This document shows positions 13,951-46,004 of a stretch of 64,000 nucleotides of DNA, piece by piece. Every line of letters begins with the position of its first letter. Position 1 is the first letter of the stretch. Under the pieces are notes generated by a model that was not told where the DNA came from, searched no databases, and worked only from the letters and a program-made list of their open reading frames with translations. Made by a program: the position numbers and the translations under genes. The DNA is from an uncultured Gammaproteobacteria bacterium (GTDB taxonomy: Bacteria > Patescibacteriota > Microgenomatia > Levybacterales > GWA1-39-11), in NCBI GenBank assembly GCA_964406795.1, contig CAYOTA010000001.1:77081-141080 (forward strand), written 5' to 3'.

Positions 13951-14796
13951 CTAATATCCTAATTCTGAGATCAGTTTTCCACTGTTATCAAACAAATAAG
14001 CACGGTCAGAACTATTATTCCAAATGAAATTTTGTGGTTCAGGGCACTTCCAGTAATAACTCGTGCGGGAATTATTACCACATCCGGAGTGAAGTCTCAA
14101 GGTACCTTTTGCTGATATGCTTGCTACATTAAACTCAAACGAGTTACTCGCACTAGCATCTTTTATAAGGTAGCCGGAGATGTCCTGGGAAGTCACGCAT
14201 GTATTAATAAATTCTATCCATTCCTCATTCTTTGTCTTTCCTTCTTTATTAATTTTAGAAATTTGTACGCATGAAGATGCAGTAGGATTACACAGTCCGT
14301 CCCACATACCCTTACATTCATTCTTTGCTCTGTCCAGAGACGCAACAAGAGTATCTGCATATAGCACATTTGGGGGGACTGTATCTACCATAGCATACCC
14401 ACTTTCAATCATATTTTGGTTAATAAACTGATCACCTATAAATAGATATCCAAGAGTACGCCCATACATGTCTTTCTGTGATACATCCAGCTCAAGCCTT
14501 ACCTCTTTTTCTAAAATAAGCATTTCTAATGTGTCTTTCGCATCTTTAAAATATGGTTGACCTTTTTCCGGAGTATTAATCCCAATGAGCCTAATTTTTT
14601 CACCGTTTGACAACTCCACAGTGTCTCCATCCACAACTTTTAGCACCTTTAGCGTATCTGCAGAAGCAGTACTTTCTGTTTGAACGCCTTGTACTTTTTT
14701 ATATTCTGGAGCATATGGGGAATTGTTGAATACAAGACTCACAAGCATAACTATGGATAAAGCCAAAAGTGTGTAGATAGTACTCTTTGATCGCAT
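13951..14796 (-). CDS. Secreted thermonuclease (SNase-like) with a C-terminal Cys-rich domain
   Basis: Signal/TM; VVDGDTVEL...IRLIGINTPE...GRTLGYLF staphylococcal-nuclease fold motifs. Confidence 0.65.
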   Translation of the reverse strand: MRSKSTIYTLLALSIVMLVSLVFNNSPYAPEYKKVQGVQTESTASADTLKVLKVVDGDTVELSNGEKIRLIGINTPEKGQPYFKDAKDTLEMLILEKEVRLELDVSQKDMYGRTLGYLFIGDQFINQNMIESGYAMVDTVPPNVLYADTLVASLDRAKNECKGMWDGLCNPTASSCVQISKINKEGKTKNEEWIEFINTCVTSQDISGYLIKDASASNSFEFNVASISAKGTLRLHSGCGNNSRTSYYWKCPEPQNFIWNNSSDRAYLFDNSGKLISELGY

Positions 14797-19613: not shown

Positions 19614-19687
19614 TGCCATGTCGTCTAATGGTAGGACACGTCCCTCTGGAGGACGGTATTGGGGTTCAAATCCCTGCATGGCAGCCA
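19614..19687 (+). tRNA. tRNA-Gln (anticodon CUG)
   Basis: Hand-folded cloverleaf: acceptor TGCCATG/CATGGCA (U1:A72 as in bacterial tRNA-Gln), U8, A14, GG in D-loop, anticodon loop CTCTGGA, TTCAAAT T-loop, discriminator G, encoded CCA. Confidence 0.8.
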
Positions 19688-19856
19688 AGACGGGCACCCT
19701 ATGGTGACCGTGGTCTCTAGAATAGCCCGAAGGGGCTTGCTAAACGCCCATTTTTAGAGACCCAAAATTCGAACCGCTAAACACCCTCAAAAAGCTGAAG
19801 TTTCAGGCTACGGTTCCAGCCTGTCCGTTGTTCCCGATTAGGATGGATTCGAACGG
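19682..19856. repeat. Left copy of a degenerate ~170-bp direct repeat (att-like), overlapping the last 6 nt of tRNA-Gln
   Basis: Shares CAGCMAAGACGGGCACCC-TA-GGTGACCGT, GAAGGGGCTTGCTAAAMGCCC, ATTCGRACCG..AAACACCC and ATTAGGAT(G)GATTCGAAC blocks at the same spacing with 46005..46176. Confidence 0.55.
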
Positions 19857-20631: not shown

Positions 20632-21969
20632 TTAATGTATCGGGGCTGAAACGATTCCTTTGTCGTGAAGATATAGTTGACGGCCAAGCGTTTGAACTAC
20701 TTCTCTTTTTTCCATTGCCAATCCATTTTTTAATGCATGCTTCGCATATTCAGTAAAGGTGATCGGCTTTTTATCTGGATCAACGTCTTGTTGCAAAAGA
20801 ATTGCGTCACGAATTTCTTTATAACCCTGCATCCCTCGTTTTAGTTTTTCGGACATTCTCAATATTTGAGGATGTGCCATTTCCATAAAATTGATATATC
20901 GAAGTATAGCCTTTATAAGTTCTTCCTCGGTTACGTACGGCTCTGGACATTCGTAGTTGATCTGTCGGGTGCAATGGTAGTAGATATGGTATCGTGGAAT
21001 ACCTATTTTTCGTTTTCTATATCTGTCTTCGCCAATTACACTTGCCCCACAGAAAGCACATTTGAATAAATCTTTGAAATCGAACTTTTTACCTCCCCAT
21101 TTTGATTTTGGTGCAACAATTAGCTTTGTTTGTACTTTGTTAAATAATTCTCTTGTGACAAGAGGCTTATGTTTTCCTTCGTACCAATTCCCGCTACCAA
21201 TTGGATATTCAAATTCACCGTAGTAAAAAGGGTTTTTAAGCATTAGATAGATTTGGCTCAGTGTTACTCCTTTATTTGCTCTAGTTTTCATTCCAATCTC
21301 ATCGAACCATCTTTTGATTGTTCTTCCACTATCACCATTTTTTACAACTCTTTCAAACATTTCAGTAACAGTAGGTCCACGATCTGGATCTATGACTATA
21401 TCCTTAACTCCCGCCATAGCTCTGTTCCAATAACCGATTGGAGGCATTCCTGGTCGCCAACCCATCTCACATTTGGCGCGAATACCTCTTTTTACGTTGA
21501 TGCCTTTTTGATCATTCTCCAGTTTGGCCTGAGAGCAGAGGATCATGAGTAAAAACTTTTCATTGGGATTATTTGAGAAGCTTTGAGAGAAAGTCTTTAT
21601 TTGTTGTAATTTACCTTGATCCATAAGATCGACAAGCATTCCTAAGTCTCCTGCGTTCCGACTCAATCGATCAGGTGCCCATGTCAAAATACCAGTAAAC
21701 ATACCATCTCTAATATCACTAATAAGTTGGCTGAAAACTGGTCGTTGACCAGACATTTTTGCTGAATGACTTTCTTTACGAACTTCTTTAATGAAGTATC
21801 CCTCTCGTATTGCCATTTCAGTCATTTCTTTGATCTGTGAATCAATCGACATGGCCTGTCGTTCATCATCTTCACTCGATTTTCTAGCGTATAAACAATA
21901 TTCAACGCTTAATGTTGGGGGTATTATTTGATCAGCTGGTGCAGGTATTCTTGCCATTTCAGGGTACAA
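20632..21969 (-). CDS. Large serine recombinase (resolvase/integrase family)
   Basis: N-terminal resolvase catalytic domain YARKSSEDDERQAMSIDSQ...; recombinase domain; C-terminal zinc ribbon (CAFCG...YYHC); about 80% identical to the CDS at 46193..47521. Confidence 0.9.
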   Translation of the reverse strand: MYPEMARIPAPADQIIPPTLSVEYCLYARKSSEDDERQAMSIDSQIKEMTEMAIREGYFIKEVRKESHSAKMSGQRPVFSQLISDIRDGMFTGILTWAPDRLSRNAGDLGMLVDLMDQGKLQQIKTFSQSFSNNPNEKFLLMILCSQAKLENDQKGINVKRGIRAKCEMGWRPGMPPIGYWNRAMAGVKDIVIDPDRGPTVTEMFERVVKNGDSGRTIKRWFDEIGMKTRANKGVTLSQIYLMLKNPFYYGEFEYPIGSGNWYEGKHKPLVTRELFNKVQTKLIVAPKSKWGGKKFDFKDLFKCAFCGASVIGEDRYRKRKIGIPRYHIYYHCTRQINYECPEPYVTEEELIKAILRYINFMEMAHPQILRMSEKLKRGMQGYKEIRDAILLQQDVDPDKKPITFTEYAKHALKNGLAMEKREVVQTLGRQLYLHDKGIVSAPIH

Positions 21970-22071: not shown

Positions 22072-22617
22072 TTACATTCCAAGATCGACCAATATTTTCT
22101 TATTACTATAAAAACTAGCGTTGTATTGAAGCTTGGGACCTTTTGCAGTCTTTGGTACTTCAAATCCTACCCAGTCAGTTTTCTTGGCTTTTGCAATTAA
22201 AGCGCCATCCATTCCTAAAGAACCAGCATTTTCTAGTCTTTTTCCAGTTACAGCAACTTGGTACTGATTATTGTCGCCATCTATGACGAACATCTGACCC
22301 ATTGTTGTAATGTACTGCTGACTTGATCCTGTGTTCTCAAGAGTCATGTTTACATCAATCCACTGATTACCTTCAGATGGCTTTGTGTATTGACCACCCT
22401 GAGCAGTTTCTACTTTATTTATAGTAAGGATAATATCTGACATTTGAACTTTATCTCCAACCTTGTAAGTCTCCTGACTTGGTTGTTCTTTCGTATTTGA
22501 AGTTTGAGTAGTGTCAGTAGATCCTACTTTTTTACTATCACTTCCCATACTGCCAATAACTCCGATTACTATTAGGATGATAAATCCTATTCCTCCCCAT
22601 TTAAGTAATTTCTTCAT
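22072..22617 (-). CDS. DUF4352-like lipoprotein
   Basis: N-terminal TM; all-beta domain with pattern typical of DUF4352 (YKVGDKV....T.NKVE...WIDVNMTLENTG). Confidence 0.5.
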   Translation of the reverse strand: MKKLLKWGGIGFIILIVIGVIGSMGSDSKKVGSTDTTQTSNTKEQPSQETYKVGDKVQMSDIILTINKVETAQGGQYTKPSEGNQWIDVNMTLENTGSSQQYITTMGQMFVIDGDNNQYQVAVTGKRLENAGSLGMDGALIAKAKKTDWVGFEVPKTAKGPKLQYNASFYSNKKILVDLGM

Positions 22618-22947: not shown

Positions 22948-24234
22948 CTATTCATAGAACCAACTCATCGCAGGGTTATCGACTTCCATTATTTTTCCTT
23001 TTTGAATTTTGTATACGCCATCTTCCTTAACCATAATCCACGTTCCTTCGTAATAATGCATTATGGCTTCACTCTCTACCCAATTCTTAGTGGAGAACTT
23101 CACAAAGGCTGTATCTTTCGTATCCTCAAACTTTTCGGACTTAATAACATCAACATCCAAAATATCTTTAAATCTATTTGTCCATTCTTCGAAATTTGTC
23201 TTAAGCAAGTATTCCTGGCTTAAAAGATTAAATCCATCTCTCATTCTTCTGGCTTTGAGGTATGTATAGTACGCTCTAACTGCATCTTCTGGAGACTTTG
23301 ATGGATCAACCTCAATTTTGGTAATTCCCTGATCTGTAAAACTCGGAACCATTGTCTTTGCCTGGTCGGCAGAAATATAAAGAGATAATCCAGCTAAACT
23401 TAGCGTGTTAATACCTATGACATTTCCGCACTGGTCAGCAATAGGCCCACCGCTCATTCCTTCCACCAAGCTTATATTCGTTTGTAGATAAACAACTGGA
23501 CTTCTACTAGATTTTCGAAAATCAATAAAGTTACCCCTAACAACGGTTGCTTTACCGACTAAATCTGTTCCTAATGCATAACCAGTTGATATCAATGGTT
23601 CGTCTTCGCGGAGCGTTACTCTGTCTGGAAGTGGCAATACTTTATCAGGGAACTTTTTATCAGTGAAAAGAACGGCCAAGTCAGCATCTTTATTGCCCAA
23701 TATTTTGCTTGGTGTAACAAAACTACCATCAGGAAAAATAATTTTTGGACTTGGTTCATCGGCAATAACATGGAAGTTTGTAATCACTTGGTCGTCCGAA
23801 ATAAAAAATCCTGATCCTTCGGAGTATCCGCCCACAACCCTGACTACAGAATTTTGTAGACTTTCTTTAGCTCCAAAAGAGCATAGAAACTTACCGTACC
23901 ATCCGTATTGAGTACGCAAATAGTCGGCAATAACAAAAAGCGAAGCGATCATGTATACAACTACAGCGATAACAAATAAAGACTTCAAAAAGTTTTTCAA
24001 ACTCCTAAAGGGGAAAATAATTGAGTCAATAATTATTTTGATGAGTGCGACTACAAACTTGATCGAAAAAACGACCAAGTAATAAGAAGAGTAAGTAACG
24101 AGTTTTATAGGGAACAGGTAAAGAGGGAAAAGAAGTCGCTTAAAGTAAGCACGAAATCTCGAGAGAAGCTTAGAAAAGTTATCTTGGATACTCTTTGACC
24201 ATTTCTCAAATTGTTTTTCAAGAATATTGATCAT
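22948..24234 (-). CDS. Membrane-anchored trypsin-like (S1/HtrA-type) serine protease with a C-terminal NTF2-like domain
   Basis: Two N-terminal TMs; GSGFFISDDQVITNFHVI (His), DLAVL (Asp), GMSGGPI (Ser) catalytic triad motifs. Confidence 0.65.
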   Translation of the reverse strand: MINILEKQFEKWSKSIQDNFSKLLSRFRAYFKRLLFPLYLFPIKLVTYSSYYLVVFSIKFVVALIKIIIDSIIFPFRSLKNFLKSLFVIAVVVYMIASLFVIADYLRTQYGWYGKFLCSFGAKESLQNSVVRVVGGYSEGSGFFISDDQVITNFHVIADEPSPKIIFPDGSFVTPSKILGNKDADLAVLFTDKKFPDKVLPLPDRVTLREDEPLISTGYALGTDLVGKATVVRGNFIDFRKSSRSPVVYLQTNISLVEGMSGGPIADQCGNVIGINTLSLAGLSLYISADQAKTMVPSFTDQGITKIEVDPSKSPEDAVRAYYTYLKARRMRDGFNLLSQEYLLKTNFEEWTNRFKDILDVDVIKSEKFEDTKDTAFVKFSTKNWVESEAIMHYYEGTWIMVKEDGVYKIQKGKIMEVDNPAMSWFYE

Positions 24235-24237
24235 GGT

Positions 24238-24993
24238 TTATTTTTCAAATTGCCGGACTGCCTGGCGGTACTTGCAGAAATCACAGTCTTCGCCTGGATC
24301 AGGCATTTCATCTGCCTTGAGACATTTGACTGCATCCAAGATTGTTTGCTCAACCCAGTTAGTGTTACCTTCGTACGGAATCACCTTTATATCAAACTCA
24401 AGCTTTCCATCAAAAGCTGCTGGATCAGTATCACCATTACAATATACAAAGTAGCCTACAGGAGAGACCCTAAAGCCGTTTTGACGGAATAACCATTGAT
24501 ATATTTCCATCTGCCGTTTGTAGCCGATTTGCCAATCTGCATCAAGCGTTACCTCAGCATCCTTAGATGTGGCTTTGTAGTCCACAATGATGAATTCACC
24601 ATCTGGTTTTACCCACACATCGTCGACCCCACCCGTAATTACTACGTTTTCGTCGTCAATCTTGAAAGTTATACCGGCTCGTAGTGAATCTCTCCACTCA
24701 TCTATCTTTTCATGAGCCAATGGAACAGCATCGATACCATATGTTTTCATTAGCGGATGAGGAGTTTTATTGGCTCTGTGAGTATCAAATTCCTTCTTGA
24801 GAAGCTTATCTACAGCCGAGTTGAGAGAAAATGGATATCCAGGTGGCTGACCAACACCTAGGCGTCGATCGAGGTAGAAACAACGTGGACAATTTAAGAA
24901 AAGATCAATCTTTGAACGACTTAAGCGAAACAACTCTGACGAATTTGCGTCATATAGATTTCTTGTGCGATTTGGATTGTAGTATTTTGACAT
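24238..24993 (-). CDS. Cas4/RecB-like PD-(D/E)XK nuclease with a 4-Cys cluster
   Basis: N-terminal Cys (CPRCFY), core ITGGVDDVW...IIVDYK (D..D/E.K), C-terminal CDFCKY; stop/start abuts the helicase below. Confidence 0.6.
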   Translation of the reverse strand: MSKYYNPNRTRNLYDANSSELFRLSRSKIDLFLNCPRCFYLDRRLGVGQPPGYPFSLNSAVDKLLKKEFDTHRANKTPHPLMKTYGIDAVPLAHEKIDEWRDSLRAGITFKIDDENVVITGGVDDVWVKPDGEFIIVDYKATSKDAEVTLDADWQIGYKRQMEIYQWLFRQNGFRVSPVGYFVYCNGDTDPAAFDGKLEFDIKVIPYEGNTNWVEQTILDAVKCLKADEMPDPGEDCDFCKYRQAVRQFEK

Positions 24994-24994
24994 A

Positions 24995-26983
24995 TCAGTT
25001 TGGTCTTCTGCTATTGTTTCTAGCTTGTTGCAATGATTCTAAGTATTGAATAAATTCAGATTTATCTCGTAATAGTTGTATTTGTCGATTGGACTTTTTG
25101 TATTTATAAAACTCAATATTTTCGCTAGGTAGCATATCCAAATAAGCATGCGGTCTCTGTGATCCGCCTGAACCTAAAGCAGTTATGAGATGTAGTGATT
25201 TTCTTGCTCTTGTTATAGCGACAAAAAAAGCATTTTTAGTTATCCATGACATATTTTGATTATCAAAACCAATAATCATTACATGATCTGCTGATAACCC
25301 TTTTGATCCAACAAGAGTTAATAACTCAACGGCACACATGTTCTTTACTTCTAATTCCTCAAGTTCAACAGATTCTTCTTCCTTATGTTCAGTTTGCAAA
25401 ACTTGATTCTCATCTATAGCTTGTTCAGTGAGATTGTTTCTTAATTCATCGGAATTAGTTATACCAATCTCAACACTTAACTTTTGAATCTTAACCTCGA
25501 TAGAATCTGTTGATTCGATAATTTCTTTTACTTTCTGACATTTGCTTAGAATTAACTGCACGGACTCGTGAGCTAATTCGAAAAACTGCTTACTAGAAGT
25601 AAGACATTCATTTATCAAAACACTAATATCAGTTGTAGCAGTACCTTCATAGTAGAAAACCTTACGAAAGGTGAAATTATTCTCAGGGTGCCTAGCAAGA
25701 GAGTAATAAGTCAATAGTTTGTAGTAATCTTCTGAAAATTTCTTAGGTTCTTCTTTATATTCAGCAACCATTTCAAATAAATCTTTATTTGCATTTGAAT
25801 TCGCATAAAAAGTTACTTGTCCGGCAGGAGTCAAAATAAGTAAAAACGGATCTTTGCTCTGTCCACTTATTAAATCATTCTTCCTTGTTGCTATTTCTTG
25901 TGCGTGGTCTTCAATGAATTTTTTAATATAGTCAACCGCTGTAGGAGAAGTGGCACATCCAATAATCTGCACTTTTGGACATTGAGTGTCTGTAGAGATT
26001 GGTAAATATACCTTCTCTATACATCCATCTTCTTGCGATTGTTTAATAAAGTGACTAGCGGTTTTTGTAATATGAAAGCTACTTCGGCCACAAAATGGAA
26101 GCATTGCCGATGTGAAGCTTGTATCTTGATATAGATTTCTTATCAATTCTGCTTTTCCTGACTTTAGTTTCTCATAAAGAACTTGATCATCATCTCCAAC
26201 TATCAAGACACCAGAATTGCCAATGGTAAGTTCATTTATGAAATTCTCCTCGGCAGTATTGAAGTCTTGATATTCATCAATAATATAAAATTGATGTTTT
26301 ATTAGTGATCGATTTTCCAATAGTGCTTTTGGTGCATGAAAAATTAAATCTGCGAAGCCTACGGCGTTATAGAATTTGGACAACTTGAAATAGTTATAAA
26401 TCACAATTTCCCACTCCTCTGAAGTGTTGAAGTTCGAATTATGGAGTTGTTCGTTAAATTTCTTAAATGAATATGTTGTCTTGTCTGGTTGATCAACAGT
26501 AAGTAACACATCCTCCCAGACTGCGTCTGTCCAAACATCACTGATAATTCTGAAATGCGGTTGAAATCTTATTTCTGGAGTTCCGTGATTTTGTTCTACT
26601 ATACTTCGAGCATATTTATGCAATGTATGAACTTCAACTTGCCCTTTTTGATCTTCAGTAAGACTTGTGTCATTTTGAATATCATTTTGTAAGTCAGCTA
26701 CAAGTTTACGAACAAAACTTAATGCTAAAATTCCTGCGGATGGATTTTGAGTTAGCCAGTAGTCGATTCGTTGTTTAAAAATTGTGCTTTTCCCCGTTCC
26801 CGGTCCTGATACGATTACAATCTTGACTGATGGATGGCCAGCAATTGCACTAGCATTACCGTTTCGATAATTGGTTCGTTCAATATCAGTTAATCTATCA
26901 AGATCACCACTTATTGTTTGTAATTCAGTGCTATTAAATGGTTCACCGTTGTCGTTGATTAAGTGTCTTATTACATTTGGCAT
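24995..26983 (-). CDS. UvrD/Rep-family SF1 DNA helicase
   Basis: GPGTGKST (I), IIDEYQDFN (II), IVGDDDQ (III), VAITRARKSLHLI (VI). Confidence 0.8.
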   Translation of the reverse strand: MPNVIRHLINDNGEPFNSTELQTISGDLDRLTDIERTNYRNGNASAIAGHPSVKIVIVSGPGTGKSTIFKQRIDYWLTQNPSAGILALSFVRKLVADLQNDIQNDTSLTEDQKGQVEVHTLHKYARSIVEQNHGTPEIRFQPHFRIISDVWTDAVWEDVLLTVDQPDKTTYSFKKFNEQLHNSNFNTSEEWEIVIYNYFKLSKFYNAVGFADLIFHAPKALLENRSLIKHQFYIIDEYQDFNTAEENFINELTIGNSGVLIVGDDDQVLYEKLKSGKAELIRNLYQDTSFTSAMLPFCGRSSFHITKTASHFIKQSQEDGCIEKVYLPISTDTQCPKVQIIGCATSPTAVDYIKKFIEDHAQEIATRKNDLISGQSKDPFLLILTPAGQVTFYANSNANKDLFEMVAEYKEEPKKFSEDYYKLLTYYSLARHPENNFTFRKVFYYEGTATTDISVLINECLTSSKQFFELAHESVQLILSKCQKVKEIIESTDSIEVKIQKLSVEIGITNSDELRNNLTEQAIDENQVLQTEHKEEESVELEELEVKNMCAVELLTLVGSKGLSADHVMIIGFDNQNMSWITKNAFFVAITRARKSLHLITALGSGGSQRPHAYLDMLPSENIEFYKYKKSNRQIQLLRDKSEFIQYLESLQQARNNSRRPN

Positions 26984-27050
26984 AGTTTTTTATTATTTTC
27001 AATCATTGGGTGGCAACTGGTCTAATCCATACATCTTGTCTTGAGACATG

Positions 27051-29729
27051 CTATTTAGAACTTAGTTGTCCAAAACTCATATTTGGTGAGATAGACGTAT
27101 GGGGCAAGATTACATATCTCCAAGGTTTTCCTCGATTAATAGTGTTAAATTTAGTCGCTGCTTCACAATACTTTTTACCTGCCTCAGCTTTTTCAAGCAC
27201 TTCGGCATCATCAATGTCTCGTTCTGCCTTTATTTCAACCAGATAAATAGCGTCCTTAGTTTCTACAACAAAATCCGGTTCATATCGTTTAGAGTTTCGC
27301 TTCCAATACATCAGAAACTGTGACATTGAAGGACGGAGCCAGCGCACAACCTCTCGATCATCTTCTAGAATGGTTGCAAAATCCTTTTCAGCTTTAGAAT
27401 CAAATTTATACAGATTATGACAAGCTTTCTTAAACCCGCCAAAAACTTTAGTAGAGATCATATTTGTAGGTGTGATCGTCTCCGTAAAGTGGTGTATTTT
27501 ATCAGCGGTATATTTGGAAAAATTATGTGGTTCGATACGAGTAAACGGATAGACTACTGGTTCTTCATACGCACCAGTTTCCAGAAAGAAGTGCTGTTGT
27601 AACTGGGCATAGATGAAGTTCCCAATTTCTCGCTTGTGATATAGCACTATATTCTCCAAGTCTTCTTCACTTCGGTTGTTACCTAATTTAACAACAGCTT
27701 GTTGAACTATTTTGTGTAGCAGTTCCGATTCACGATCATAATCAATTTCCGGATAATTCACGAGTTCATTCATAACAATATTGCTCGGGATATCACGCTC
27801 CATGCCACTTTCAGTGCTTTGTAATACCTCACTCAAATTAGTTCTTAGAGTTCGACGAATAATTTCTTCTGATACTGGTTGGTAGTTAAGTCCAGAAACA
27901 TCAAGTTCAAAATCATGAAAACCTGAACGCACCTCATTACTTTGCTGAACCAGAATTCGAGGAATGGGAATGGTCTTAGAAATAAGCTCTTCAACTACCG
28001 CCTCATACTCTTTTTCAGCGGCTGCAACTATCTGATCCTTGAACAGATTTTGTTGAGGGATGCTTTCAATATGCTCGACCATCTTTTTAATAGCAAGTTT
28101 TTGTACATCACTGCTCTTTAAGTCATCAATGTTTTTAATTTGACTTCCAAGCGAGCTAACTGCGTCTACGATTAATTGCTGGGCATCAAGGGAAATTCCA
28201 GCACTTTGTCTTTCGACTTCATCTTTCAACTCGGAGACTTGATCTCGCCTTTCATTTAGAGATGATTGAACAATTGAAGACGATGTAATAACTTCTTGAT
28301 TGGCGGGCAGTTCATTCGGATCAATTTCTATGATATTTTCTTTTCGAATTATTGAGTTTGGGTCGTTAGCCGCATCCACGATTGATTGGAAACGATCATG
28401 GGCAATTATGGTAAGCTTGTCTACTTTTTCAACACCAGTACGTGCCCCGTATGGCAATCGCAAACCTCGGCCAATAGTCTGTTCTGTTAGGATTTGAGAA
28501 TTTGCAGCGCGAAGAGGAATGATTGTATAGAGATTGGTAACATCCCAACCTTCTTTAAGCATGTTGACATGAATAACGATTTCAATTGAATTATCTGGTT
28601 TTTCTAAAGCAACTAATTTCTGTACATTTTCTTCTTTTTCCTCACCACGCTGGTTGGAATGAATCTCAATGACCTTGCCTTTATAACGGCCTTCAAAGAA
28701 TTGTTCGGATTCAATTGTTGTTCGAATCTCTTTGGCATGATCAGTGTCTTTGGCAACAACTAATACAAATGGTCGTACCAATGGTTTGTTCATATCCCTG
28801 GAGTAGATATCTAGAGCAACTTTGGTATCTTCGTGGATACGAATACCATCTTCGAGTTTGATAAGGTCGAGTTCCTTAGGGTCATTTCTGTATTGGTCAG
28901 GATTAAAGTTTCTGCGTGTTGCTATCGCAGGTTCTTTGACAAACCCGTCTTGCAATGCTTTGGCCAAAGGATAATCGTAGACTACATTTTTGAATTTAAG
29001 ACCAGTTGAATCAATTGGAGTGGCGGTTAATTCCAAACCTAAAATTGGCTTAAGTTCATTAATTGCCTTGAGTCCTGCATCAGCACGATAATGATGTGAC
29101 TCGTCCATAATCAAGACGAGATCAGGCAACTCTGCAAGATAGTTAAAGTAAGATTCTCCTAGATATTCGGACAGTCGTTTAATGCGGGGCTCACGTCCTC
29201 CACGAACTTCAGAATTTATCTTGGAAATATTAAAGATGTTGATACGAACAGTCTCACCCAGCATTTGCTGGTGCTGATTGTAGGTATCTCCAGTGATGAT
29301 ACGTGGGCCAAATACCGCAAATTCGGATATACCTTTAAAGACATACTTTGGATTCTGTGGATTAGATAAATCGTCTATTAATTTATTATAAATAGTTAGA
29401 TTGGGCGCCAACACAAAAAAATTCTTTATTCCTTTTGCTGAATAGAGGTAGGCAATAAATGCTCCCATCAAGCGGGTTTTGCCAACGCCTGTAGCTAAAG
29501 AAAAACAAACTGAAGGAAACTCACGCTCAAAATCAGAACACGTAGGATACAACGCACGAACTTTTTCTAAATCACTTTTAACGTCATCATCACTCTTCAA
29601 TTTCAAAATATCTGTTATTTTTTGCAAAATTTCTAAGCTATCCGCTTGTGGTTTACGTAGACTTAATCTATTTTTGATAGTTTGAGCTTTACTGTTCATC
29701 TTGTACCTCCTTAGATTCTTCCGCCTCAT
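27051..29729 (-). CDS. Type III restriction enzyme Res subunit (SF2 helicase + C-terminal PD-(D/E)XK endonuclease)
   Basis: LATGVGKT (I), LIMDESHH (II), QTIGRGLRL (VI), C-terminal EPDFVV...YLVEIK nuclease motif; overlaps the mod gene by 41 nt. Confidence 0.75.
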   Translation of the reverse strand: MRRKNLRRYKMNSKAQTIKNRLSLRKPQADSLEILQKITDILKLKSDDDVKSDLEKVRALYPTCSDFEREFPSVCFSLATGVGKTRLMGAFIAYLYSAKGIKNFFVLAPNLTIYNKLIDDLSNPQNPKYVFKGISEFAVFGPRIITGDTYNQHQQMLGETVRINIFNISKINSEVRGGREPRIKRLSEYLGESYFNYLAELPDLVLIMDESHHYRADAGLKAINELKPILGLELTATPIDSTGLKFKNVVYDYPLAKALQDGFVKEPAIATRRNFNPDQYRNDPKELDLIKLEDGIRIHEDTKVALDIYSRDMNKPLVRPFVLVVAKDTDHAKEIRTTIESEQFFEGRYKGKVIEIHSNQRGEEKEENVQKLVALEKPDNSIEIVIHVNMLKEGWDVTNLYTIIPLRAANSQILTEQTIGRGLRLPYGARTGVEKVDKLTIIAHDRFQSIVDAANDPNSIIRKENIIEIDPNELPANQEVITSSSIVQSSLNERRDQVSELKDEVERQSAGISLDAQQLIVDAVSSLGSQIKNIDDLKSSDVQKLAIKKMVEHIESIPQQNLFKDQIVAAAEKEYEAVVEELISKTIPIPRILVQQSNEVRSGFHDFELDVSGLNYQPVSEEIIRRTLRTNLSEVLQSTESGMERDIPSNIVMNELVNYPEIDYDRESELLHKIVQQAVVKLGNNRSEEDLENIVLYHKREIGNFIYAQLQQHFFLETGAYEEPVVYPFTRIEPHNFSKYTADKIHHFTETITPTNMISTKVFGGFKKACHNLYKFDSKAEKDFATILEDDREVVRWLRPSMSQFLMYWKRNSKRYEPDFVVETKDAIYLVEIKAERDIDDAEVLEKAEAGKKYCEAATKFNTINRGKPWRYVILPHTSISPNMSFGQLSSK

Positions 29730-31287
29730 TCCTAGTCGCTTTGATGATATTCAAATCGTAATTATCTTTACCAAATTCGCACTTCCCAAGAATCATCTGA
29801 GGAATTTTCTTAATAGTTATATTTGAAAAATAATTTTCGCTCTCTGGAGCAAACGATTTGGCGCAGATTAATAAACTTTCATTTTCGGTCATTTGTGCAT
29901 GAATAGCATCGAGCTGTTCTACTGTCACGAAGCCAGTTGTAACAAAAATATAGTCCGTTTCGGTAGATTTACCCTGCTTCCAATATGCTGCCTCGTCAGG
30001 AGAATATTTAAAACCTTCATGTTTACACATAGCTGCGGACAACATATTTGCATTATATTTCTCATCAATCACAAAGTTTCCAAAACTGTCCTTGCGCAAG
30101 AGGGAAGGAGCTAAATTATAAAACTTAAATCCACCTCCACCTTTCCAACCAAGAGCTTCTGATAATGGTAACCCATCCTTACCGTCAACCACCTTCTTCA
30201 GCCTAGGTAAGCAGTGTGTTGTCGCGTGTTCGCCCAGTTCGACCCCAATCCATTTACGACCCATTTTGTGAGCGACTGACGCGGTAGTACCTGATCCTAG
30301 GAAACTGTCGAGTACCCAGTCTCCAGGCTTTGAAGCTATATCAAATATTCTCTTTATGAGTCTTTCAGGTTTAGGTGTTGAAAAAGGATCATCAGCAAAT
30401 AACTTTTTAATCTCTTGTTTAGCCTCCTGATTGTCACCAACTTCAGTTCGAAACCAAATTGTAATAGGGACAAGACCATCCTGCACCTCCGTAAGAAAAC
30501 GCTTATAGCGAGGAACATTGTTACCATTACTGCCGAAGTATATTCGATTATCGTTAATCAACTCTTCAAATCTGATTTTAGAAAATCTCCAGCTTGTACC
30601 TGCTGGAGGCATTAAGACTCTGCCTGATGGTGTGGTCAAAGGGTAAATATCCTTAGGATTTGGTGTTTTGGCATGACAAGGCCCTGATGCCCAGACTCCT
30701 CTTGGGTCGTTATCAATATTTGTATATCCTTTAGAATCATCACCATTGCGAGGCAACAAATTTCTTTGCCAAAGTAATTTATTCTTTGCGTAACAGAGTA
30801 TAAAATCGTGATTGTCAGATAGCCATCTTGCATCATTACTTCTCGTGTGTTTCTTTTCCCAAATAATTGTAGCTACAAAATTATTTCTACCAAAAACTTC
30901 GTCGCATAATACTTTTAAATAATGAGACTCTGTATCATCTACAGAAATCCATAAACTGCCCTGATCTTTATCTAAAAGATTTTTTAATATTTCTAATCTT
31001 GGGCGTACTAAATTTAACCAAATCGAATGTTCAAGGTTGTCGTCATAGTGCGTAAATGCACTTCCAGTATTATAAGGAGGGTCAATATAAATACATTTTA
31101 TTTTGCCTGTAAAATCTTGTTCTAAAGCCTTTAACGCAAGAAGGTTGTCACCGTAAATAAGCATATTTTCGGAGTTGTGGTCGCCATAAGACTTTTCAGA
31201 ATCTTCAATCAAGATTCTCGGCTCAAGCTTGAGTTCTTCATCTTTGCCGATCCATGTTAATTCCAGTTTTTGTTTTTTATTTGTCAT
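29689..31287 (-). CDS. Type III Mod N6-adenine DNA methyltransferase
   Basis: IYIDPPYN (motif IV) preceding LDSFLGSGTT (motif I): beta-class order typical of Mod. Confidence 0.8.
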   Translation of the reverse strand: MTNKKQKLELTWIGKDEELKLEPRILIEDSEKSYGDHNSENMLIYGDNLLALKALEQDFTGKIKCIYIDPPYNTGSAFTHYDDNLEHSIWLNLVRPRLEILKNLLDKDQGSLWISVDDTESHYLKVLCDEVFGRNNFVATIIWEKKHTRSNDARWLSDNHDFILCYAKNKLLWQRNLLPRNGDDSKGYTNIDNDPRGVWASGPCHAKTPNPKDIYPLTTPSGRVLMPPAGTSWRFSKIRFEELINDNRIYFGSNGNNVPRYKRFLTEVQDGLVPITIWFRTEVGDNQEAKQEIKKLFADDPFSTPKPERLIKRIFDIASKPGDWVLDSFLGSGTTASVAHKMGRKWIGVELGEHATTHCLPRLKKVVDGKDGLPLSEALGWKGGGGFKFYNLAPSLLRKDSFGNFVIDEKYNANMLSAAMCKHEGFKYSPDEAAYWKQGKSTETDYIFVTTGFVTVEQLDAIHAQMTENESLLICAKSFAPESENYFSNITIKKIPQMILGKCEFGKDNYDLNIIKATRNEAEESKEVQDEQ

Positions 31288-31291
31288 AGTT

Positions 31292-34200
31292 TTAGATTAT
31301 CTTCCATCGAATGGTAAATAATGGCTCAAGTTTTGAGTGCTGAGCCAATCGGGCTTCAACTGATTCAAGCAACTTTTCCTTCTTTAATTCTACCTCGTCT
31401 TGGGTCTCAAACAAACGCCTTCTCATCTCATTTCGTTTCTTCTCCCAATCTTTAATTTCTCTTTGGGCTTTCAATTTTTCATCTAAATTAATGATCTTTT
31501 TAGCATTTGTTTTTGCCGTTTTAATGTCAATATCAAACTTCCTTAAATCTAGCTCTATCGCTTTCTTTACATCTTCTGCCCAATTATCTAGTTTATCTAC
31601 CTCGTGATCAAAGAAACTCCCGTTACGCTCGGCGATAACGGTGGAAACAGTCTTAACATACGTATTTTCAAGTTCATCAAGTTTGGTTTTTTTATCACTT
31701 GGAACATTCAATGGAGTAGTGGACTCTGCTGATAACTGAAATATTTTCTTGATAATTTCAGGTTCTATTACATCACCAGAGTCGGTAATTGCAGAGAGAA
31801 TAATATTATCTTCTGCTTCAAATGATTCCACGGTAAAGTTTGAGATCTTCAATACTCCACTTTTTCCTACAAACCGTTTTAGTACAGATATTATGGTTTG
31901 ATTGTCGGAATAATTAAAGACAATTTCTGTTTCTTCAGCCTGTTTTGATTTAATGTCAGACAAAATACGCTGGGCAAGGGAATGTCCTGGGCGGTAAATG
32001 TGAGCATCTTCAATATTCTTACCTATTTTATAAGGGCCAGAATCAATTTCTTCGTTTGGAAATGGGTTCTTTTTTAACATGAATGAATATTCTTGTTCAG
32101 AAAATTCAGCATTATCGCCAAGATAAAATCTTGTGGTATCCCAAAGCCAACGGTTATACATGTCAAGATACATCGTAGTTTCTTTAAGATTTAATTTAAG
32201 TTTTTCGTGTACCTCAGCGTCAAAGTTCTCCAAAAGTGTTTGTCTAGTCTCGGAAAGATTATTTTTGATACTCACATCCATTTCCTCCTGAAGTTTATCG
32301 AACGCAGTATTAATCTCGTCTGTGGTACGACAATCTTGATAGATTGCTGCAATACGCTTTTCAAAGTCCACTCCAGACTCGATATTACCCAAAACTTCGT
32401 CACTAGCTCCGAAAACACCTTTAAACAATTTGAACTTTTGATCTAAAAGGTCATATACGCGACTATCAGCTGCGTTTTTTCGATTCACAAAATTAATTAC
32501 AACCACATCATGCTTCTGTCCGTATCGATGACATCTGCCAATGCGCTGTTCGATACGCTGTGGATTCCACGGCAAATCGTAGTTAATAACTAAGGAACAA
32601 AACTGTAAGTTAACACCCTCCGCTGCTGCCTCGGTGGCGATCATAATATCTGCTTCATCATGGAAGTAGTCGATAAGGGCAGAACGCATGTCCGCAGTTT
32701 TTGACCCAGTAAGTTTATCGGAGTCTTTATTTTTTTCAACCCAATTTTTATAAATTTCTTTTGATTTAGGATCGTTGTTCGAACCGTTAAAGAGGACGAT
32801 TTTATCCTGATAGCCATTATCCGGCAAAAGAGTCTCTGATAAATATTTTTGTGTAATCGTGGATTCAGTAAAAATAATCGCTTTTTGTTTTGCGCCAAGC
32901 TCTTTCGTCATCTCAAAACCTTTTTTAAGTGCTATCAGAAGCGCGTCCCCTTTAGAGTTAGTGAAAATAGCTTTTGCGAGATCTCTAAATCTTTCCAAAT
33001 CGATCTTTTCCTGTTCCATTAGTGGAATATCGTCCTGGGTGTATACCTTAGGTTTTTTACCTTTTTCTGTATCACCATCGTCACCTTCTTCATCATCAAT
33101 CCATTCATCAGATATTTCATCCAATCCCTCAAAATTTTGGGCAATCTCGGTTGTATCAAACTCAACAGGTACAGTTGCCAATGTCTTCTTCGTTTCATCA
33201 ATCAGTAATCCTAGTTTTGCTACGAGATTATTAAGGGTACTTGCTATGGCAAAGGAAGACGAAGCAAGTAACTTTCTTAAAATAAGTGTCATGAGCTGTC
33301 GCTGGCTCGAAGGAAGGGCAAACAATGTCGGCCGTTGTAAATATTCAGACATACTGTCATACAGCTCAATCTCTTGTTTCGTAGGGATGTAGTCCTGAGT
33401 AATTGGTTTACGTTCAGTGTATTTAATATATTCCAATACCTGACGTCTTAATGTCCGAATACAGACCGACTTTAGACGACTTCGTAAATCAGTAAAAAGA
33501 AGTTGTTTTGGATCGACCATTTGCTCATCTTCTGCCAGTCCATTTTCTCTTATAACAATACCTTTACCCGTGTCACCCTCTTTTGCCCACTGGATACCAC
33601 TTATATGTGTAGGAATTTCCTGCTCTCTAGGTGCATGCGAGTAATTTGCTTTGAAACTTTTTAAATCACCAAATACGTGATCATCGATAATGCTTACGAG
33701 ACCATATAGTTCAAGTAATGAATTTTGTAACGGTGTTGCTGTGAGCAGAATCTTGGGCACATCAGACAAAGAGCTTTTTATTTCTCGAGCTATCTTGTTA
33801 CTTGTCTTGTAAACATTACGTAGTCGATGCGCTTCATCGATTACTGCTAAATCCCATTTAGTTTGTTTTACGTATGGAGCTTTTCCTCTAGCAAAATGAT
33901 ATGAGCAAATAATTATCTTATCTTCCTGATCAAAAGGGTTGAGATTTCCGTCTTTAATAGATTGATTAAATGATTTGGCTTCCAATATCACCGAGGGCAA
34001 AAAGAACTTTTCTTGTAATTCCATGTTCCATTGCTTGCGAAGCGCAGCGGGAACAATCAAGAGAATCTTTCTTTTTCGCTCTGCCCATTTTTGAGATAAA
34101 ACAAGACCAGCCTCGATTGTCTTTCCTAGTCCAACTTCATCGGCCAAGATTGCACCCATCGATAAAGGGGATTTAAATGCAAATAATGCGGCTTCAATTT

Positions 34201-34327
34201 GGTGTGGATTAAGGTCAACCTGCGCATTAGAAAGAGTGGAAGATAATTTTTCAAGGCTATCTGAAGAACATCGCTTAGTTAACTCGTAAGCAAAGTATTT
34301 TGCATGATATGGCGTAATTTTTAACAT
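31292..34327 (-). CDS. SNF2-family helicase (1011 aa) co-operonic with Type III mod-res
   Basis: ADEVGLGKT, DEAHRLRN, HelicC block NYDLPWNPQRIEQRIGRCHRYGQ; 5-nt gap to mod. Confidence 0.85.
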   Translation of the reverse strand: MLKITPYHAKYFAYELTKRCSSDSLEKLSSTLSNAQVDLNPHQIEAALFAFKSPLSMGAILADEVGLGKTIEAGLVLSQKWAERKRKILLIVPAALRKQWNMELQEKFFLPSVILEAKSFNQSIKDGNLNPFDQEDKIIICSYHFARGKAPYVKQTKWDLAVIDEAHRLRNVYKTSNKIAREIKSSLSDVPKILLTATPLQNSLLELYGLVSIIDDHVFGDLKSFKANYSHAPREQEIPTHISGIQWAKEGDTGKGIVIRENGLAEDEQMVDPKQLLFTDLRSRLKSVCIRTLRRQVLEYIKYTERKPITQDYIPTKQEIELYDSMSEYLQRPTLFALPSSQRQLMTLILRKLLASSSFAIASTLNNLVAKLGLLIDETKKTLATVPVEFDTTEIAQNFEGLDEISDEWIDDEEGDDGDTEKGKKPKVYTQDDIPLMEQEKIDLERFRDLAKAIFTNSKGDALLIALKKGFEMTKELGAKQKAIIFTESTITQKYLSETLLPDNGYQDKIVLFNGSNNDPKSKEIYKNWVEKNKDSDKLTGSKTADMRSALIDYFHDEADIMIATEAAAEGVNLQFCSLVINYDLPWNPQRIEQRIGRCHRYGQKHDVVVINFVNRKNAADSRVYDLLDQKFKLFKGVFGASDEVLGNIESGVDFEKRIAAIYQDCRTTDEINTAFDKLQEEMDVSIKNNLSETRQTLLENFDAEVHEKLKLNLKETTMYLDMYNRWLWDTTRFYLGDNAEFSEQEYSFMLKKNPFPNEEIDSGPYKIGKNIEDAHIYRPGHSLAQRILSDIKSKQAEETEIVFNYSDNQTIISVLKRFVGKSGVLKISNFTVESFEAEDNIILSAITDSGDVIEPEIIKKIFQLSAESTTPLNVPSDKKTKLDELENTYVKTVSTVIAERNGSFFDHEVDKLDNWAEDVKKAIELDLRKFDIDIKTAKTNAKKIINLDEKLKAQREIKDWEKKRNEMRRRLFETQDEVELKKEKLLESVEARLAQHSKLEPLFTIRWKII

Positions 34328-34328
34328 A

Positions 34329-34499
34329 TTAATTCTTTTTACTTATGAATTTTTCTAAATCGGCTTTTCTATATCGCCTAGTTCGTTTTTCTCCAATTCG
34401 AATAGCTATGAGAATGCCCTTTTTGTCCCATATACGCAAAGTATTTACATGAACCTTTAAGATTTGTGCCGCTTCTTTGAGAGTTAATAGTTCTTCCAT
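34329..34499 (-). CDS. Small excisionase-family (AlpA/MerR-like) HTH protein, 56 aa. Not in the ORF track (below the size cut-off).
   Basis: Manual translation MEELLTLKEAAQILKVHVNTLRIWDKKGILIAIRIGEKRTRRYRKADLEKFISKKN; paralog of 39591..39773; stop 2 nt before the SNF2 start. Confidence 0.55.
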   Translation of the reverse strand: MEELLTLKEAAQILKVHVNTLRIWDKKGILIAIRIGEKRTRRYRKADLEKFISKKN

Positions 34500-34618
34500 A
34501 TTGATTTACCTACCAATTGATAACAATATTATATAGAGTTAGCTAGGCTTTTTCAACCATTTTTATACGAAAAAACACCTCAAAAAGGCCGAAGTCTATG
34601 TAGTATAGGAGGAATTCC

Positions 34619-35359: not shown

Positions 35360-36907
35360 TTAAAACTTCATATCCAGTGTGATTGGTTCAATATCAAATC
35401 CTAAATCATTCATGTGTTGCAAAGACCAAGTTAATCCAGGGTGAGGATCAGGTTCTGGTGTAGATACTTCGCCCGGTTTACGCCTGCTTGATGGACGATC
35501 TGAATCTATGACTTTTGACATAAGTAATGTAAAAGCATCAGCCAAATCATCATATTTTTCCACACCAAAATTTACTAATTGACCTATTAATACTTCTGCA
35601 CCTGTTCTTGGAAAGAATACTTTCCCTTGTTGGATAAGGGGAGAAACCAAGGATAGTCTTGACCTTTTATCCATATTTGGAATTCTCACTTCTTCAGCAA
35701 GTACGTGTTCTACTGTCAGTTGTTGCGCTGCGGCACTTTGGTAACCGACACTTTCTATGTAGGCCACAGGATACGGTCTATAACCTACTTTAAGTTGCTC
35801 CGTTAAGGTTTTTATTGCCTGAATTGTTTGTGGAAAATCTAATTTCTTGTTTAAGATATATGGCAAAATGTAGACTTGAAGATTGTCGCCGTAACCCACT
35901 ACATACGCTGGAACTAAGGCCGTGAAGTTTGCCCATTCCAAAAGTGAAATAGCTAAGTCAACGCCAATCGCTACAAGCCTGGCTGGATAACGATCAGTAC
36001 TAGGAAGAATATCGTAATATTTTATCCAAGAGCCTTTTACAATTCGGTCTTCGTCAGCAATAATTTTTAACAAGAACTCCCTGTACCAAGCTGATTCATC
36101 AGAAATCTCTTTCCTTTTAGCTTCAATGTGTGCCATCGTTGGAAATTTGCCAGGCCAAGCAATATTTCCGTTATCGTCTAACAATGGAAATTCTTTATAA
36201 ATACCGCCTGCCCCTCCTGATTGGATATTTTGCTTAATTCGCATCATCAGCGAATCCTCATGCAAGAGGTTACCTACTGTAATTATTCTGGTGCCACTAT
36301 CTCCAATTGGCTTTATCTCACCAGAAAACCAGTTCCAGAGATTATCTCTGCTTTCTCTGGTCTTAACTGATTCCAGATCTTCAACATCGTCGATGATAAT
36401 AAGATCAGGTCGGTATTGTCGATGTCTGAGTCCTCTGATTCTTTCACTTTGAGATATGGCTGAAATTCTGGCGTCGTGGTGCGGGATTACGAGTGAATTG
36501 GATCGCCATTCGTCAGCTACTTCTGAAAATGGTCCAAAATCTCGTATCAATAACTCATTTGATGTAAGTTCTTGTTTTATGTTTGTAAGGATTTGTTTTG
36601 CCAATCCCTGGGTCAGGCTCACGAGCAGGGTATATTTCTTGCTTGGCTTACCAACCATTGCCCAGATAGGTAGTGCAAGAGTTGCTATTGTTGATTTAGC
36701 CGAACCACGAAAAGCAGTAATGGAAATCTTTTCTAATTCTTCGTTTTGTATGAGATTAAAAATTTCCTTTTGAAAATCAGCAGTCGGACAAGTAATGTAG
36801 TGAGGAAAATAAGTGACAAAAAACCAATAAAAGTTCTCCTGCGTTAATGCTCTTCGAAAATCAGGATTATCCTGAATTTGTTTTATGATTTGTTGTTGAT
36901 CATTCAT
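35360..36907 (-). CDS. Phage terminase large subunit-like protein (ATPase + nuclease)
   Basis: Walker A-like AFRGSAKST, Walker B LIIIDDVED, nuclease motif IGVDLA; 515 aa. Confidence 0.65.
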   Translation of the reverse strand: MNDQQQIIKQIQDNPDFRRALTQENFYWFFVTYFPHYITCPTADFQKEIFNLIQNEELEKISITAFRGSAKSTIATLALPIWAMVGKPSKKYTLLVSLTQGLAKQILTNIKQELTSNELLIRDFGPFSEVADEWRSNSLVIPHHDARISAISQSERIRGLRHRQYRPDLIIIDDVEDLESVKTRESRDNLWNWFSGEIKPIGDSGTRIITVGNLLHEDSLMMRIKQNIQSGGAGGIYKEFPLLDDNGNIAWPGKFPTMAHIEAKRKEISDESAWYREFLLKIIADEDRIVKGSWIKYYDILPSTDRYPARLVAIGVDLAISLLEWANFTALVPAYVVGYGDNLQVYILPYILNKKLDFPQTIQAIKTLTEQLKVGYRPYPVAYIESVGYQSAAAQQLTVEHVLAEEVRIPNMDKRSRLSLVSPLIQQGKVFFPRTGAEVLIGQLVNFGVEKYDDLADAFTLLMSKVIDSDRPSSRRKPGEVSTPEPDPHPGLTWSLQHMNDLGFDIEPITLDMKF

Positions 36908-37334
36908 GACTATTTTCTTTGGACGGAATAAGTGCCGCCATTTCTATTGCTTTATTGAGTAATTCTTTCTGTTCATCTGTCAGGTTAATTTCTTTGTTAT
37001 AGCCAGCGGTAGTCACCTCAACTCTGTTGCGATAGGAATCATGATGTGTCTTAAGCCAGAAAATTATCGAGGTCATGTTTTTATCCTTAATGGCACTAAT
37101 TAGCTGGCTCTCGGCTAGATCATTCACAAGCAAGTTGCCTTCTTGCAAGGCTTCATCTGCCTGTTTTGAAAACTCTTTATCTTCAGCTCTCCATCGATAA
37201 TATGTCGAACGTCCTACATTGGTTTTCTCACAGGCCACCTGAACTATGGGAGTTTTCTTTAGTTGCTCTACCAGTAGATCTTGTTCAACTTTTATACGAT
37301 CTCTAACTGTAATTTGATTATCTTTGTTGTTCAT
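36900..37334 (-). CDS. Phage terminase small subunit-like HTH protein
   Basis: HTH ACEKTNVGRSTYYRWR; ...IIFWLKTHHDSYR typical of TerS; overlaps terL by 8 nt. Confidence 0.5.
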   Translation of the reverse strand: MNNKDNQITVRDRIKVEQDLLVEQLKKTPIVQVACEKTNVGRSTYYRWRAEDKEFSKQADEALQEGNLLVNDLAESQLISAIKDKNMTSIIFWLKTHHDSYRNRVEVTTAGYNKEINLTDEQKELLNKAIEMAALIPSKENSHE

Positions 37335-45817: not shown

Positions 45818-46004
45818 TCAACTCAACACATACCGGGAATATTTGAGGAATGCAAGCTAATTTTAGATAAATATATCAAAGTACATCATACCTAAATTGT
45901 GAGACACCCTTTTTTATAGTGTCCCATTTGTCTCATTTTTGATAGAATTAGCCTCGAAAGCTAATTGGGCTATAGGGATAAAAAGGGTCTAGACCGTACC
46001 CCAC

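Follow-up and report, generated by a model that had tools for sequence, protein, structure and literature searches.

A defence cassette at 24994..34326 (minus strand) in the 64-kb stretch of contig CAYOTA010000001.1 analysed here, hereafter the window, has been swapped between conserved flanking genes, an HTH_17 regulator on the left and a solo Cas4/AddB-like PD-(D/E)XK nuclease on the right. We consider it probable that this position is a defence-cassette slot framed by these two genes, that the nuclease contributes end-processing for the cassettes, and that the UvrD-like helicase encoded next to the nuclease is an accessory of the restriction-modification (RM) cassette. The distributions of the helicase and the nuclease were independent of each other, and the two genes, which a preliminary description of the same DNA had treated as a dedicated pair, are not an obligate or dedicated two-gene system. 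Loci of relatives are cited by the labels L001-L182 and their proteins by P-numbers.

The swapped cassette and the slot upstream of the nuclease

The cassette was delimited by blastn comparisons with L087, L007, and L003. Homology ended at 34327, where HTH_17 reaches its 3' end and the first cargo gene starts, and resumed at 24993, the ATG of the nuclease, with none between these points; the interval 24994-34326 is therefore a swapped cassette. In the window it encodes a DrmD-like SNF2-family helicase of 1011 aa as its first gene (31292..34327; PADLOC DrmD, E=1e-206), the type III methyltransferase Mod of 532 aa (29689..31287; PADLOC MTase_III, E=3e-193; PF01555, E=2e-46), the type III restriction subunit Res of 892 aa with a C-terminal PD-(D/E)XK motif (27051..29729; PADLOC REase_III, E=6e-185; PF04851; a TnsA-like endonuclease match), and the UvrD-like superfamily 1 (SF1) helicase of 662 aa as its last gene (24995..26983; PF00580, E=1e-26), all on the minus strand. 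The open reading frames (ORFs) of Mod and Res overlap by 41 nt, and the presence of both in one operon identifies a type III RM system.

Between the same flanks, the related loci carried different cargo. The slot was occupied by PLD-SNF2, Eco57I-like, 53-aa ORF, and PDC-S06-type ATPase genes in L087, where the nuclease was 98% identical to that of the window; by type I RM genes and an SMC-like ATPase in L007 (nuclease 96% identical); and by PLD-SNF2, MmeI-like, and RT_UG13b genes in L003 (nuclease 80% identical). HTH_17 was 75-80% identical in these three loci, and the other frame genes of L087 were also close to those of the window (protease 97%, DUF4352 gene 94%, and HTH_3 100% identical). 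Conserved flanks with unrelated defence cargo between them are the arrangement that defines a core defence hotspot. We searched both cassette junctions of the window, L087, L007, L003, L001, and L174 for a shared recombination motif and found none; stop and start codons alone were common to the junctions, and a site-specific recombination motif was rejected.

The gene directly next to the nuclease can change while the RM module is kept. A Moraniibacteriota genome contained an SNF2/Mod/Res module 67-75% identical to that of the window, again upstream of the nuclease, with AbiP2 replacing UvrD, so that occupancy of the slot next to the nuclease changes independently of the RM module. The eight OLD-like genes found at this position mostly shared 21-29% identity with one another (two pairs reached 45% and 64%), while the adjacent nucleases were 70-80% identical.

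A neighbourhood census of 77 non-redundant nuclease loci showed the same organization. The gene upstream of the nuclease was co-oriented with it in 73 of 78 cases (94%), compared with 67% of background gene pairs, the median gap was 12 nt, and co-orientation on the upstream and downstream sides differed significantly (Fisher test, p=1.4e-4). The nuclease was almost always the last, co-oriented gene behind RM or other defence genes: RM components were located upstream of it in 33 loci, and downstream each RM family occurred in at most one locus. Families of the immediate upstream neighbour included OLD/AAA_15 (8 loci), SMC-like or AAA_23 ATPases (about 10), GmrSD (4), YgjP (3), reverse transcriptases (3), Shedu (2), Schlafen-like proteins (2-3), and UvrD (2), with a few housekeeping genes such as ROK; in about half of the loci, this gene had a recognised defence or ATPase domain. 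PADLOC named several of these occupants as known stand-alone systems (Old, RT_UG13b of the DRT type, AbiP2, SduA, and PDC-S06). The second gene upstream encoded mostly type I R subunits, type III Res, or Eco57I/MmeI-like enzymes.

Individual slots can be inspected in L014, L003, L053, L008, L036, and L020, whose occupants are Old, RT_UG13b, AbiP2, PDC-S06, Shedu, or DUF262/HEC-05-like. Many other occupants, such as a 262-aa protein in L001 (7189-7977), carry no annotation and are candidates for new defence genes.

The left border of the slot is less general than the right. HTH_17 was co-oriented upstream of the nuclease, within 10-kb flanks, in 6 of about 77 loci; it was therefore rejected as a universal left frame gene and frames the slot in this lineage only. 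In the window it encodes an excisionase-like regulator of 56 aa (34329..34499, minus strand; excisionase/regulator matches to phrog_66 and phrog_2907), and its stop codon lies 1 nt from the ATG of the SNF2 gene. The nine genes from HTH_17 to a large serine recombinase were all read on the minus strand. Upstream of HTH_17, a candidate operon promoter of sigma-70-like type was located at 34528..34556 (minus strand); it was the best match of the region (11/12) in a consensus scan, a match that does not in itself imply function.

The co-orientation, the short gaps, and the strict polarity with RM genes upstream argue for an operon-like link between cassette and nuclease. In such an operon, the genes from HTH_17 through at least the nuclease would be co-transcribed. 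Mod/Res would cut unmodified DNA, the SNF2 and UvrD motors would remodel or unwind the cut DNA, and the nuclease would thread 5' single-strand ends and degrade or resect them. The nuclease would thus have a RecBCD/AddAB-like role after restriction, generic for whichever cassette occupies the slot; where UvrD is its neighbour, as in the window, helicase and nuclease could behave as a UvrD-Cas4 or AddAB-type helicase-nuclease divided over two proteins.

The conserved nuclease

The nuclease gene (24238..24993, minus strand) encodes 251 aa and matched PF12705 (PDDEXK_1) with E=5e-15 and a score of 56.5 bits (cut-off 22), the alignment of residues 23-244 covering profile positions 1-244 of 247. Several PADLOC Cas4 models were also matched (E about 5e-9), and there were weak matches to PHROG exonucleases. 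The RecB-type catalytic motifs (hD, (D/E)xK, and QxxxY) were present and aligned with those of Cas4 SSO0001: GGvDD (D124/D125), D138-Y-K140, and Q161..Y165 were invariant or nearly so. Among 40 sequences down to 35% identity, D124/D125, K140, and Y165 were invariant, and D138 and Q161 were at least 90% conserved. The Pfam match and these residues bear out the PD-(D/E)XK core proposed in the preliminary description. Its cysteine assignment, one N-terminal cysteine plus a C-terminal cluster as in Cas4/AddB, has to be corrected: the pattern is CxxC...CxxC (C35-x2-C38 ... C237-x2-C240), and in family members down to 35% identity C35, C38, and C237 were invariant and C240 was conserved to at least 90%. 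This 2+2 arrangement is unlike the 1+3 arrangement of Cas4/AddB (C...CxxCx5C).

A search of the PDB with the single nuclease sequence returned spurious cellulase matches only, and a search with the 40-sequence profile returned a marginal match to Cas4 SSO0001 alone (E=0.005). Because these sequence searches were at best marginal, the family assignment was based on Pfam and on a fold search. With an AlphaFold model of the nuclease (pLDDT 76.6), the nearest Foldseek matches were the Cas4 proteins SSO0001 and Pcal_0546, the nuclease domains of AdnAB and AddB, human EXO5, ACE1, and RecE; the top matches had E about 1e-5 and TM scores of 0.35-0.49.

Relatives of the nuclease numbered more than 8000 in the databases, the best 120 being 78-98% identical, and occurred in at least 580 species-representative genomes, where the best 80 were 71-96% identical. 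All nuclease-bearing genomes with informative names were Patescibacteria. In a neighbour-joining tree, Microgenomates-type and Parcubacteria-type nucleases were separated with few exceptions, which points to mainly vertical descent; the nuclease is a very conserved and mostly vertically inherited Patescibacteria gene. Relatives were found in 2 of 2.9 million viral contigs (60-63% identity), and a phage origin was rejected on this count. Three genomes contained two nuclease paralogues (74-89% identical), and the two copies followed different defence operons. Many of the third-party assemblies that carry the nuclease (L012-L084) are titled 'uncultured Gammaproteobacteria', 'Bdellovibrionales', or 'Saccharibacteria' despite their Patescibacteria-type genes; these titles are probably placeholders or wrong labels, and they were not used in our analysis.

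Vertical inheritance and very strong conservation are also what would be seen if the nuclease were a housekeeping enzyme of DNA repair or processing with no tie to defence, its upstream side being a core defence hotspot in which islands are exchanged by recombination with the conserved flanks. We regard this explanation as rather unlikely, although a good part of the data suits it. The nuclease is nearly identical beside three unrelated cargos, several upstream genes (Shedu, AbiP2, Old, and DRT) are self-sufficient single-gene systems elsewhere, distant relatives of the nuclease lie in housekeeping neighbourhoods, the family includes fusions to NUDIX or HD domains, homologues whose upstream region is intergenic have -10-like boxes of their own, and core defence hotspots are a known phenomenon (PMC10250203). 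However, a mere anchor does not readily account for an arrangement that looks operonic in its co-orientation and spacing, for RM genes that are almost never downstream, or for paralogues that each follow a separate defence operon. In another class, the transferred SNF2/Mod/Res module again came to lie immediately upstream of the nuclease, and a DNA identity of about 70% would be poor for homologous recombination.

The preferred reading, a framed slot whose nuclease processes ends for the cassettes, is therefore retained, and the same two observations, the paralogues and the module found upstream of the nuclease in another class, favour a functional link. Such a link also has precedents in passages of PMC5704561, namely UvrD-Cas4 fusions beside type III RM genes and solo-Cas4 beside RM genes. 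Cooperation of the nuclease with the defence operons is nevertheless the more doubtful part of this reading, and we would put it at somewhat less than an even chance. Several points weigh against it. Distant relatives of the nuclease (36-45% identity) have housekeeping genes as neighbours: they are found upstream of rsmH-ftsL, or with an nrdR-like gene on one side and ogt-like/HD_4 genes on the other. Among close homologues, some come after ROK/PGI genes and possess a -10-like box of their own in the upstream intergenic region. A metal or Fe-S cluster in the nuclease is suggested by the conserved cysteines alone, and the structure model is of moderate quality. Moreover, a nearly unchanged nuclease beside unrelated partners argues against specific protein contacts.

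Other members of the wider family were noted separately. The distant relatives P0250, P0272, and P0290 are fused to NUDIX, HD_4, or TIR+GYF domains, and in L182 (8001-10029) the nuclease lies near ogt-like and HD_4 genes. These fusions and this context hint at roles in repair or nucleotide metabolism in the wider family.

In its broadest form, which we put forward tentatively and rate as rather unlikely, the slot reading would make one solo Cas4-like nuclease the shared terminal module of a Patescibacteria plug-in slot: unrelated cassettes would be swapped at its start codon and the nuclease would process their DNA ends. The cargo would then comprise RM types I, IIG, and III, Old, DRT/Abi reverse transcriptases, Shedu, GmrSD, PDC-S06, and UvrD. 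If true, this would be an integron-like organization of immunity in which a common downstream nuclease substitutes for RecBCD/AddAB; the substitution is one that we infer, since a literature search on RecBCD/AddAB in Patescibacteria gave nothing usable. Irrespective of this broadest form, the findings give the otherwise unexplained solo-Cas4 of candidate-phyla bacteria a concrete and testable genomic role, in which it is the constant gene that closes exchangeable defence operons. The position just upstream of the nuclease is a place to harvest new defence genes of these uncultured bacteria.

The helicase and the surrounding island

The helicase was confirmed as an SF1 UvrD-like protein of 662 aa by its PF00580 match and by the motifs in its translation (Walker A GPGTGKST, DEYQD, VGDDDQ, and ITRARK). 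Several GajB models of PADLOC matched its N-terminal half (E down to 4e-25), RTasHel was matched partially, and UvrD/Rep/PcrA structures were matched in the PDB (E=4e-10). Since a 100% identical helicase (P0121) and 96-98% identical nucleases exist in public data, neither gene is a chance ORF, and the two reading frames of the preliminary description are genuine. Homologues of the helicase with 53-69% identity were found in records of Paceibacterota, Actinobacteria, Bacteroidota, Burkholderiales, Peribacteria, and Saccharibacteria; over the wider range of 38-69% identity, the family extended through many phyla and was normally encoded by the last gene of RM-like operons.

We examined 44 informative loci of helicase homologues, each with at least 800 nt of downstream sequence. 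RM-like operons in which a helicase homologue came last were of the SNF2-like plus Eco57I/MmeI-like type (13 loci) or the HsdR plus HsdM-S fusion type (11 loci), and a further type consisted of HTH, EcoRI-methylase, and GmrSD_N-HNH genes. The nuclease gene was found in none of the 44 loci. The PF12705 domain was also absent from the 120 best helicase homologues, and ten over-length relatives among the 150 best nuclease representatives carried other domains or none recognised, with no UvrD fusion. Conversely, a UvrD-like gene lay directly upstream of the nuclease in 2 of the 77 nuclease loci, and those two helicases were 22% identical.

The preliminary description had proposed that helicase and nuclease form a dedicated defence pair, a new system resembling Gabija or AddAB, with the membrane protease and the DUF4352 lipoprotein perhaps serving as a sensing or abortive-infection arm. 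The two genes are indeed 1 nt apart on the same strand, UvrD-Cas4 fusions exist elsewhere (described in passages of PMC5704561), and the junction of the two genes recurs, although in a single short contig only (L174; helicase 88% and nuclease 82% identical). The closer match of the helicase in that contig speaks for a cassette that was transferred into a less similar frame. Conservation of the pair in other genomes, a check that the preliminary description had named, was not borne out, as the helicase occurred without the nuclease in 44 of 44 loci; homology with the relatives breaks off in the gap that separates helicase from nuclease, and the nuclease stays 96-98% identical while its upstream gene changes. 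The proposed arm fared no better: a protease homologue was present downstream of the nuclease in about 9 of the 77 loci (directly after it in 7), and the DUF4352 gene was confined to the nearest relatives (L004/L007 and L087). The pair reading is thus largely refuted by distribution, and we consider it very improbable. Because members of the helicase family move about, in many phyla, as the 3'-terminal genes of RM-type operons, the adjacency of helicase and nuclease is attributed to cassette replacement. Rejecting a two-gene system spares cloning effort on the wrong unit, and a helicase family of about 655 aa is identified as a recurrent RM-operon accessory in several phyla.

Among L095-L173, this family recurs as the last gene of RM-type operons, for example in L116 (2531-5998) and L120 (3548-5995). 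It may represent an unrecognised accessory of RM-type systems.

The gene order of the preliminary description also required correction. Its 1-nt spacing was exact, as a single base separates the TGA stop of the helicase (24997-24995) from the nuclease ATG at 24993, so that the helicase is the upstream gene of the two and not the downstream one. The protease and the DUF4352 protein do adjoin the pair on the same strand, but both lie downstream of the nuclease. The trypsin-like serine protease (22948..24234, minus strand; 428 aa; Trypsin_2 PF13365, E=3e-19) has an N-terminal hydrophobic region and starts 3 nt past the nuclease stop. The DUF4352 protein (22072..22617, minus strand; 181 aa; PF11611, E=2e-20; phrog_806) has an N-terminal hydrophobic segment. 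The edge of the region is formed by the large serine recombinase (20632..21969, minus strand; 445 aa; Resolvase, Recombinase, and Zn_ribbon_recom domains), which occupies the same position in L004 and L087. A tRNA-Gln (19614..19687, plus strand), identified by ARAGORN and Rfam, lies beside this end of the island.

The location in a defence island, part of the preliminary description, was substantiated by the type III Mod/Res genes, the DrmD-like SNF2 gene, and a full-length Avs4 gene 15 kb away. The latter is a STAND-NTPase anti-phage gene on the plus strand (39777-44513), whose 1578-aa product gave a full-length PADLOC match of 1979 bits. The flanks of the island consist of housekeeping genes (Lon, DsbD-like, and FGGY kinase).

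Signs of mobile elements were also present around the cassette, the island lying within a stretch that is rich in recombinases and of phage derivation. The region 35360-39338 (minus strand) encodes TerL (phrog_38, E=3e-78), a TerS-like protein, a ParB-N6/N4 methylase, and a second methylase; capsid or tail genes were not seen there, and the region has the appearance of either the remains of a prophage or an element of satellite type. In L087, too, this TerL is found upstream of the slot. There are three large serine recombinases in the window (20632-21969, 44510-45817, and 46193-47521). Imperfect direct repeats of about 70 nt (19682-19752 and 46004-46073; 82-87% identical and 26.3 kb apart) are located just 3' of two of these recombinases, and one copy abuts the tRNA-Gln; they are possible att sites, either of a single element or of islands in tandem.

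Given these features, the nuclease could be conceived as the exonuclease for recombination in an integrative element of phage descent whose genes include defence cargo, a terminase, methyltransferases, and serine recombinases. The terminase genes, the ParB-methylase, the excisionase-like HTH_17, the three recombinases, the tRNA-Gln, and the 70-nt repeat would all suit such a backbone, as would the TerL...recombinase frame shared with L087 and the weak PHROG exonuclease matches of the nuclease. However, serine recombinases were present near the nuclease in only about 8 of the 77 loci, only two viral contigs carried a relative (60-63% identity), and the nuclease tree follows host taxonomy; we therefore think that this explanation is hardly credible.

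Two further features of the window lie outside the cassette. The segment 49657-59871 (minus strand) encodes Nuo/Mrp-type membrane subunits (three Proton_antipo_M and one NuoH-like) and a multicopper oxidase, at a G+C content of 0.43-0.45 compared with about 0.37 elsewhere. Such a cluster with a multicopper oxidase is unusual for Patescibacteria and may have been acquired. The gene at 13951-14796 (minus strand) encodes a staphylococcal-nuclease domain fused to a lamin-tail domain, and its product may be a secreted or surface DNA-degrading enzyme.

Comparison with known systems

Several known systems combine a helicase with a nuclease. Like AddAB, AdnAB, and RecBCD, the locus encodes an SF1 helicase and a RecB-type nuclease with a cysteine cluster predicted to staple the domain, and AdnAB and AddB were among the best folds. 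Unlike these enzymes, it has no large two-domain subunits, its cysteines are arranged as 2+2, and the pairing is not conserved. The NCBIfam models of AddA, AddB, RecB, and RecC gave no match and RecD gave 19 bits against a cut-off of 310, so this assignment was rejected. The preliminary description had named ordinary repair genes in core synteny as the alternative to its pair; one half of this holds, as the nuclease behaves as a vertical core gene, and the AddAB identity does not.

Its statement that the locus matches neither Gabija nor Hachiman agreed with the PADLOC models. Gabija consists of GajA, an OLD-family ATPase-TOPRIM protein, and the UvrD-like helicase GajB; the helicase matches GajB models, but no neighbouring protein matches GajA, and other genomes place OLD-family genes directly before the nuclease without UvrD. 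Hachiman was rejected because the helicase belongs to SF1 and not superfamily 2 (SF2) and DUF1837 is missing; HamA was matched by the protease domain alone, and weakly (E=1.5e-5). DISARM was rejected as well: only the DrmD-like SNF2 protein is present (NCBIfam DISARM_DrmD_b, 693 bits against a cut-off of 950), and DrmA, DrmB, or DrmC was not the best PADLOC match of any adjacent protein, a secondary DrmA match being confined to the SNF2 protein.

An assignment of the nuclease to CRISPR Cas4 (TIGR00372 equivalog) was rejected at 34.2 bits against a cut-off of 65 and on the lack of a third C-terminal cysteine. No cas domains were found in the ORFs scanned across the window and no tandem array was seen, the window not having been scanned specifically for interspaced repeats. 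The Argonaute-associated Cas4-family protein ACE1 (PDB 9iab/9iac, by PDB name) is a precedent for a Cas4-family nuclease in non-CRISPR defence, but its match to the nuclease was partial (E about 1e-4, about 145 aligned columns, TM 0.27-0.29), and there is no Argonaute at the locus.

The closest descriptions were found in passages of Hudaiberdiev et al. 2017 (PMC5704561). They report solo-Cas4/pfam12705 nucleases in candidate phyla radiation (CPR) bacteria and in DPANN archaea, whose small genomes are mostly without CRISPR; these solo-Cas4 are mostly vertically inherited and have adjacent RM genes, including in DPANN archaea. The nuclease studied here, stand-alone, vertical, and RM-adjacent, fits this description; those passages on solo-Cas4 mention neither a strictly 3'-terminal position, nor exact cassette breakpoints, nor a CxxC...CxxC pattern. 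The same source, in the parts considered here, describes UvrD-Cas4-like fusions beside type III Mod/Res, for which ancillary unwinding and cleavage was proposed. As in those fusions, an SF1 UvrD-type helicase and a PF12705 nuclease lie next to type III RM genes, with Mod/Res immediately upstream; unlike them, the two activities are encoded by separate genes with independent distributions, and membership in the fusion clade was rejected on the separate polypeptides.

The slot itself resembles core defence hotspots. P2/P4 prophage hotspots have conserved flanks and exchanged defence cargo. Core hotspots are also established, for example as the cDHS of Pseudomonas aeruginosa (PMC10250203). The slot shares with them conserved flanks, fast-exchanged cargo, and sister genomes that differ in cargo alone, but here the cargo is co-oriented with, and within a few bases of, one conserved nuclease across a phylum-level radiation. 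Since both ingredients, solo-Cas4 and the defence hotspot, have already been described in outline, the novelty is modest; the noteworthy part is that, across the phylum, one very conserved nuclease is coupled in an operon-like manner to numerous defence cassettes.

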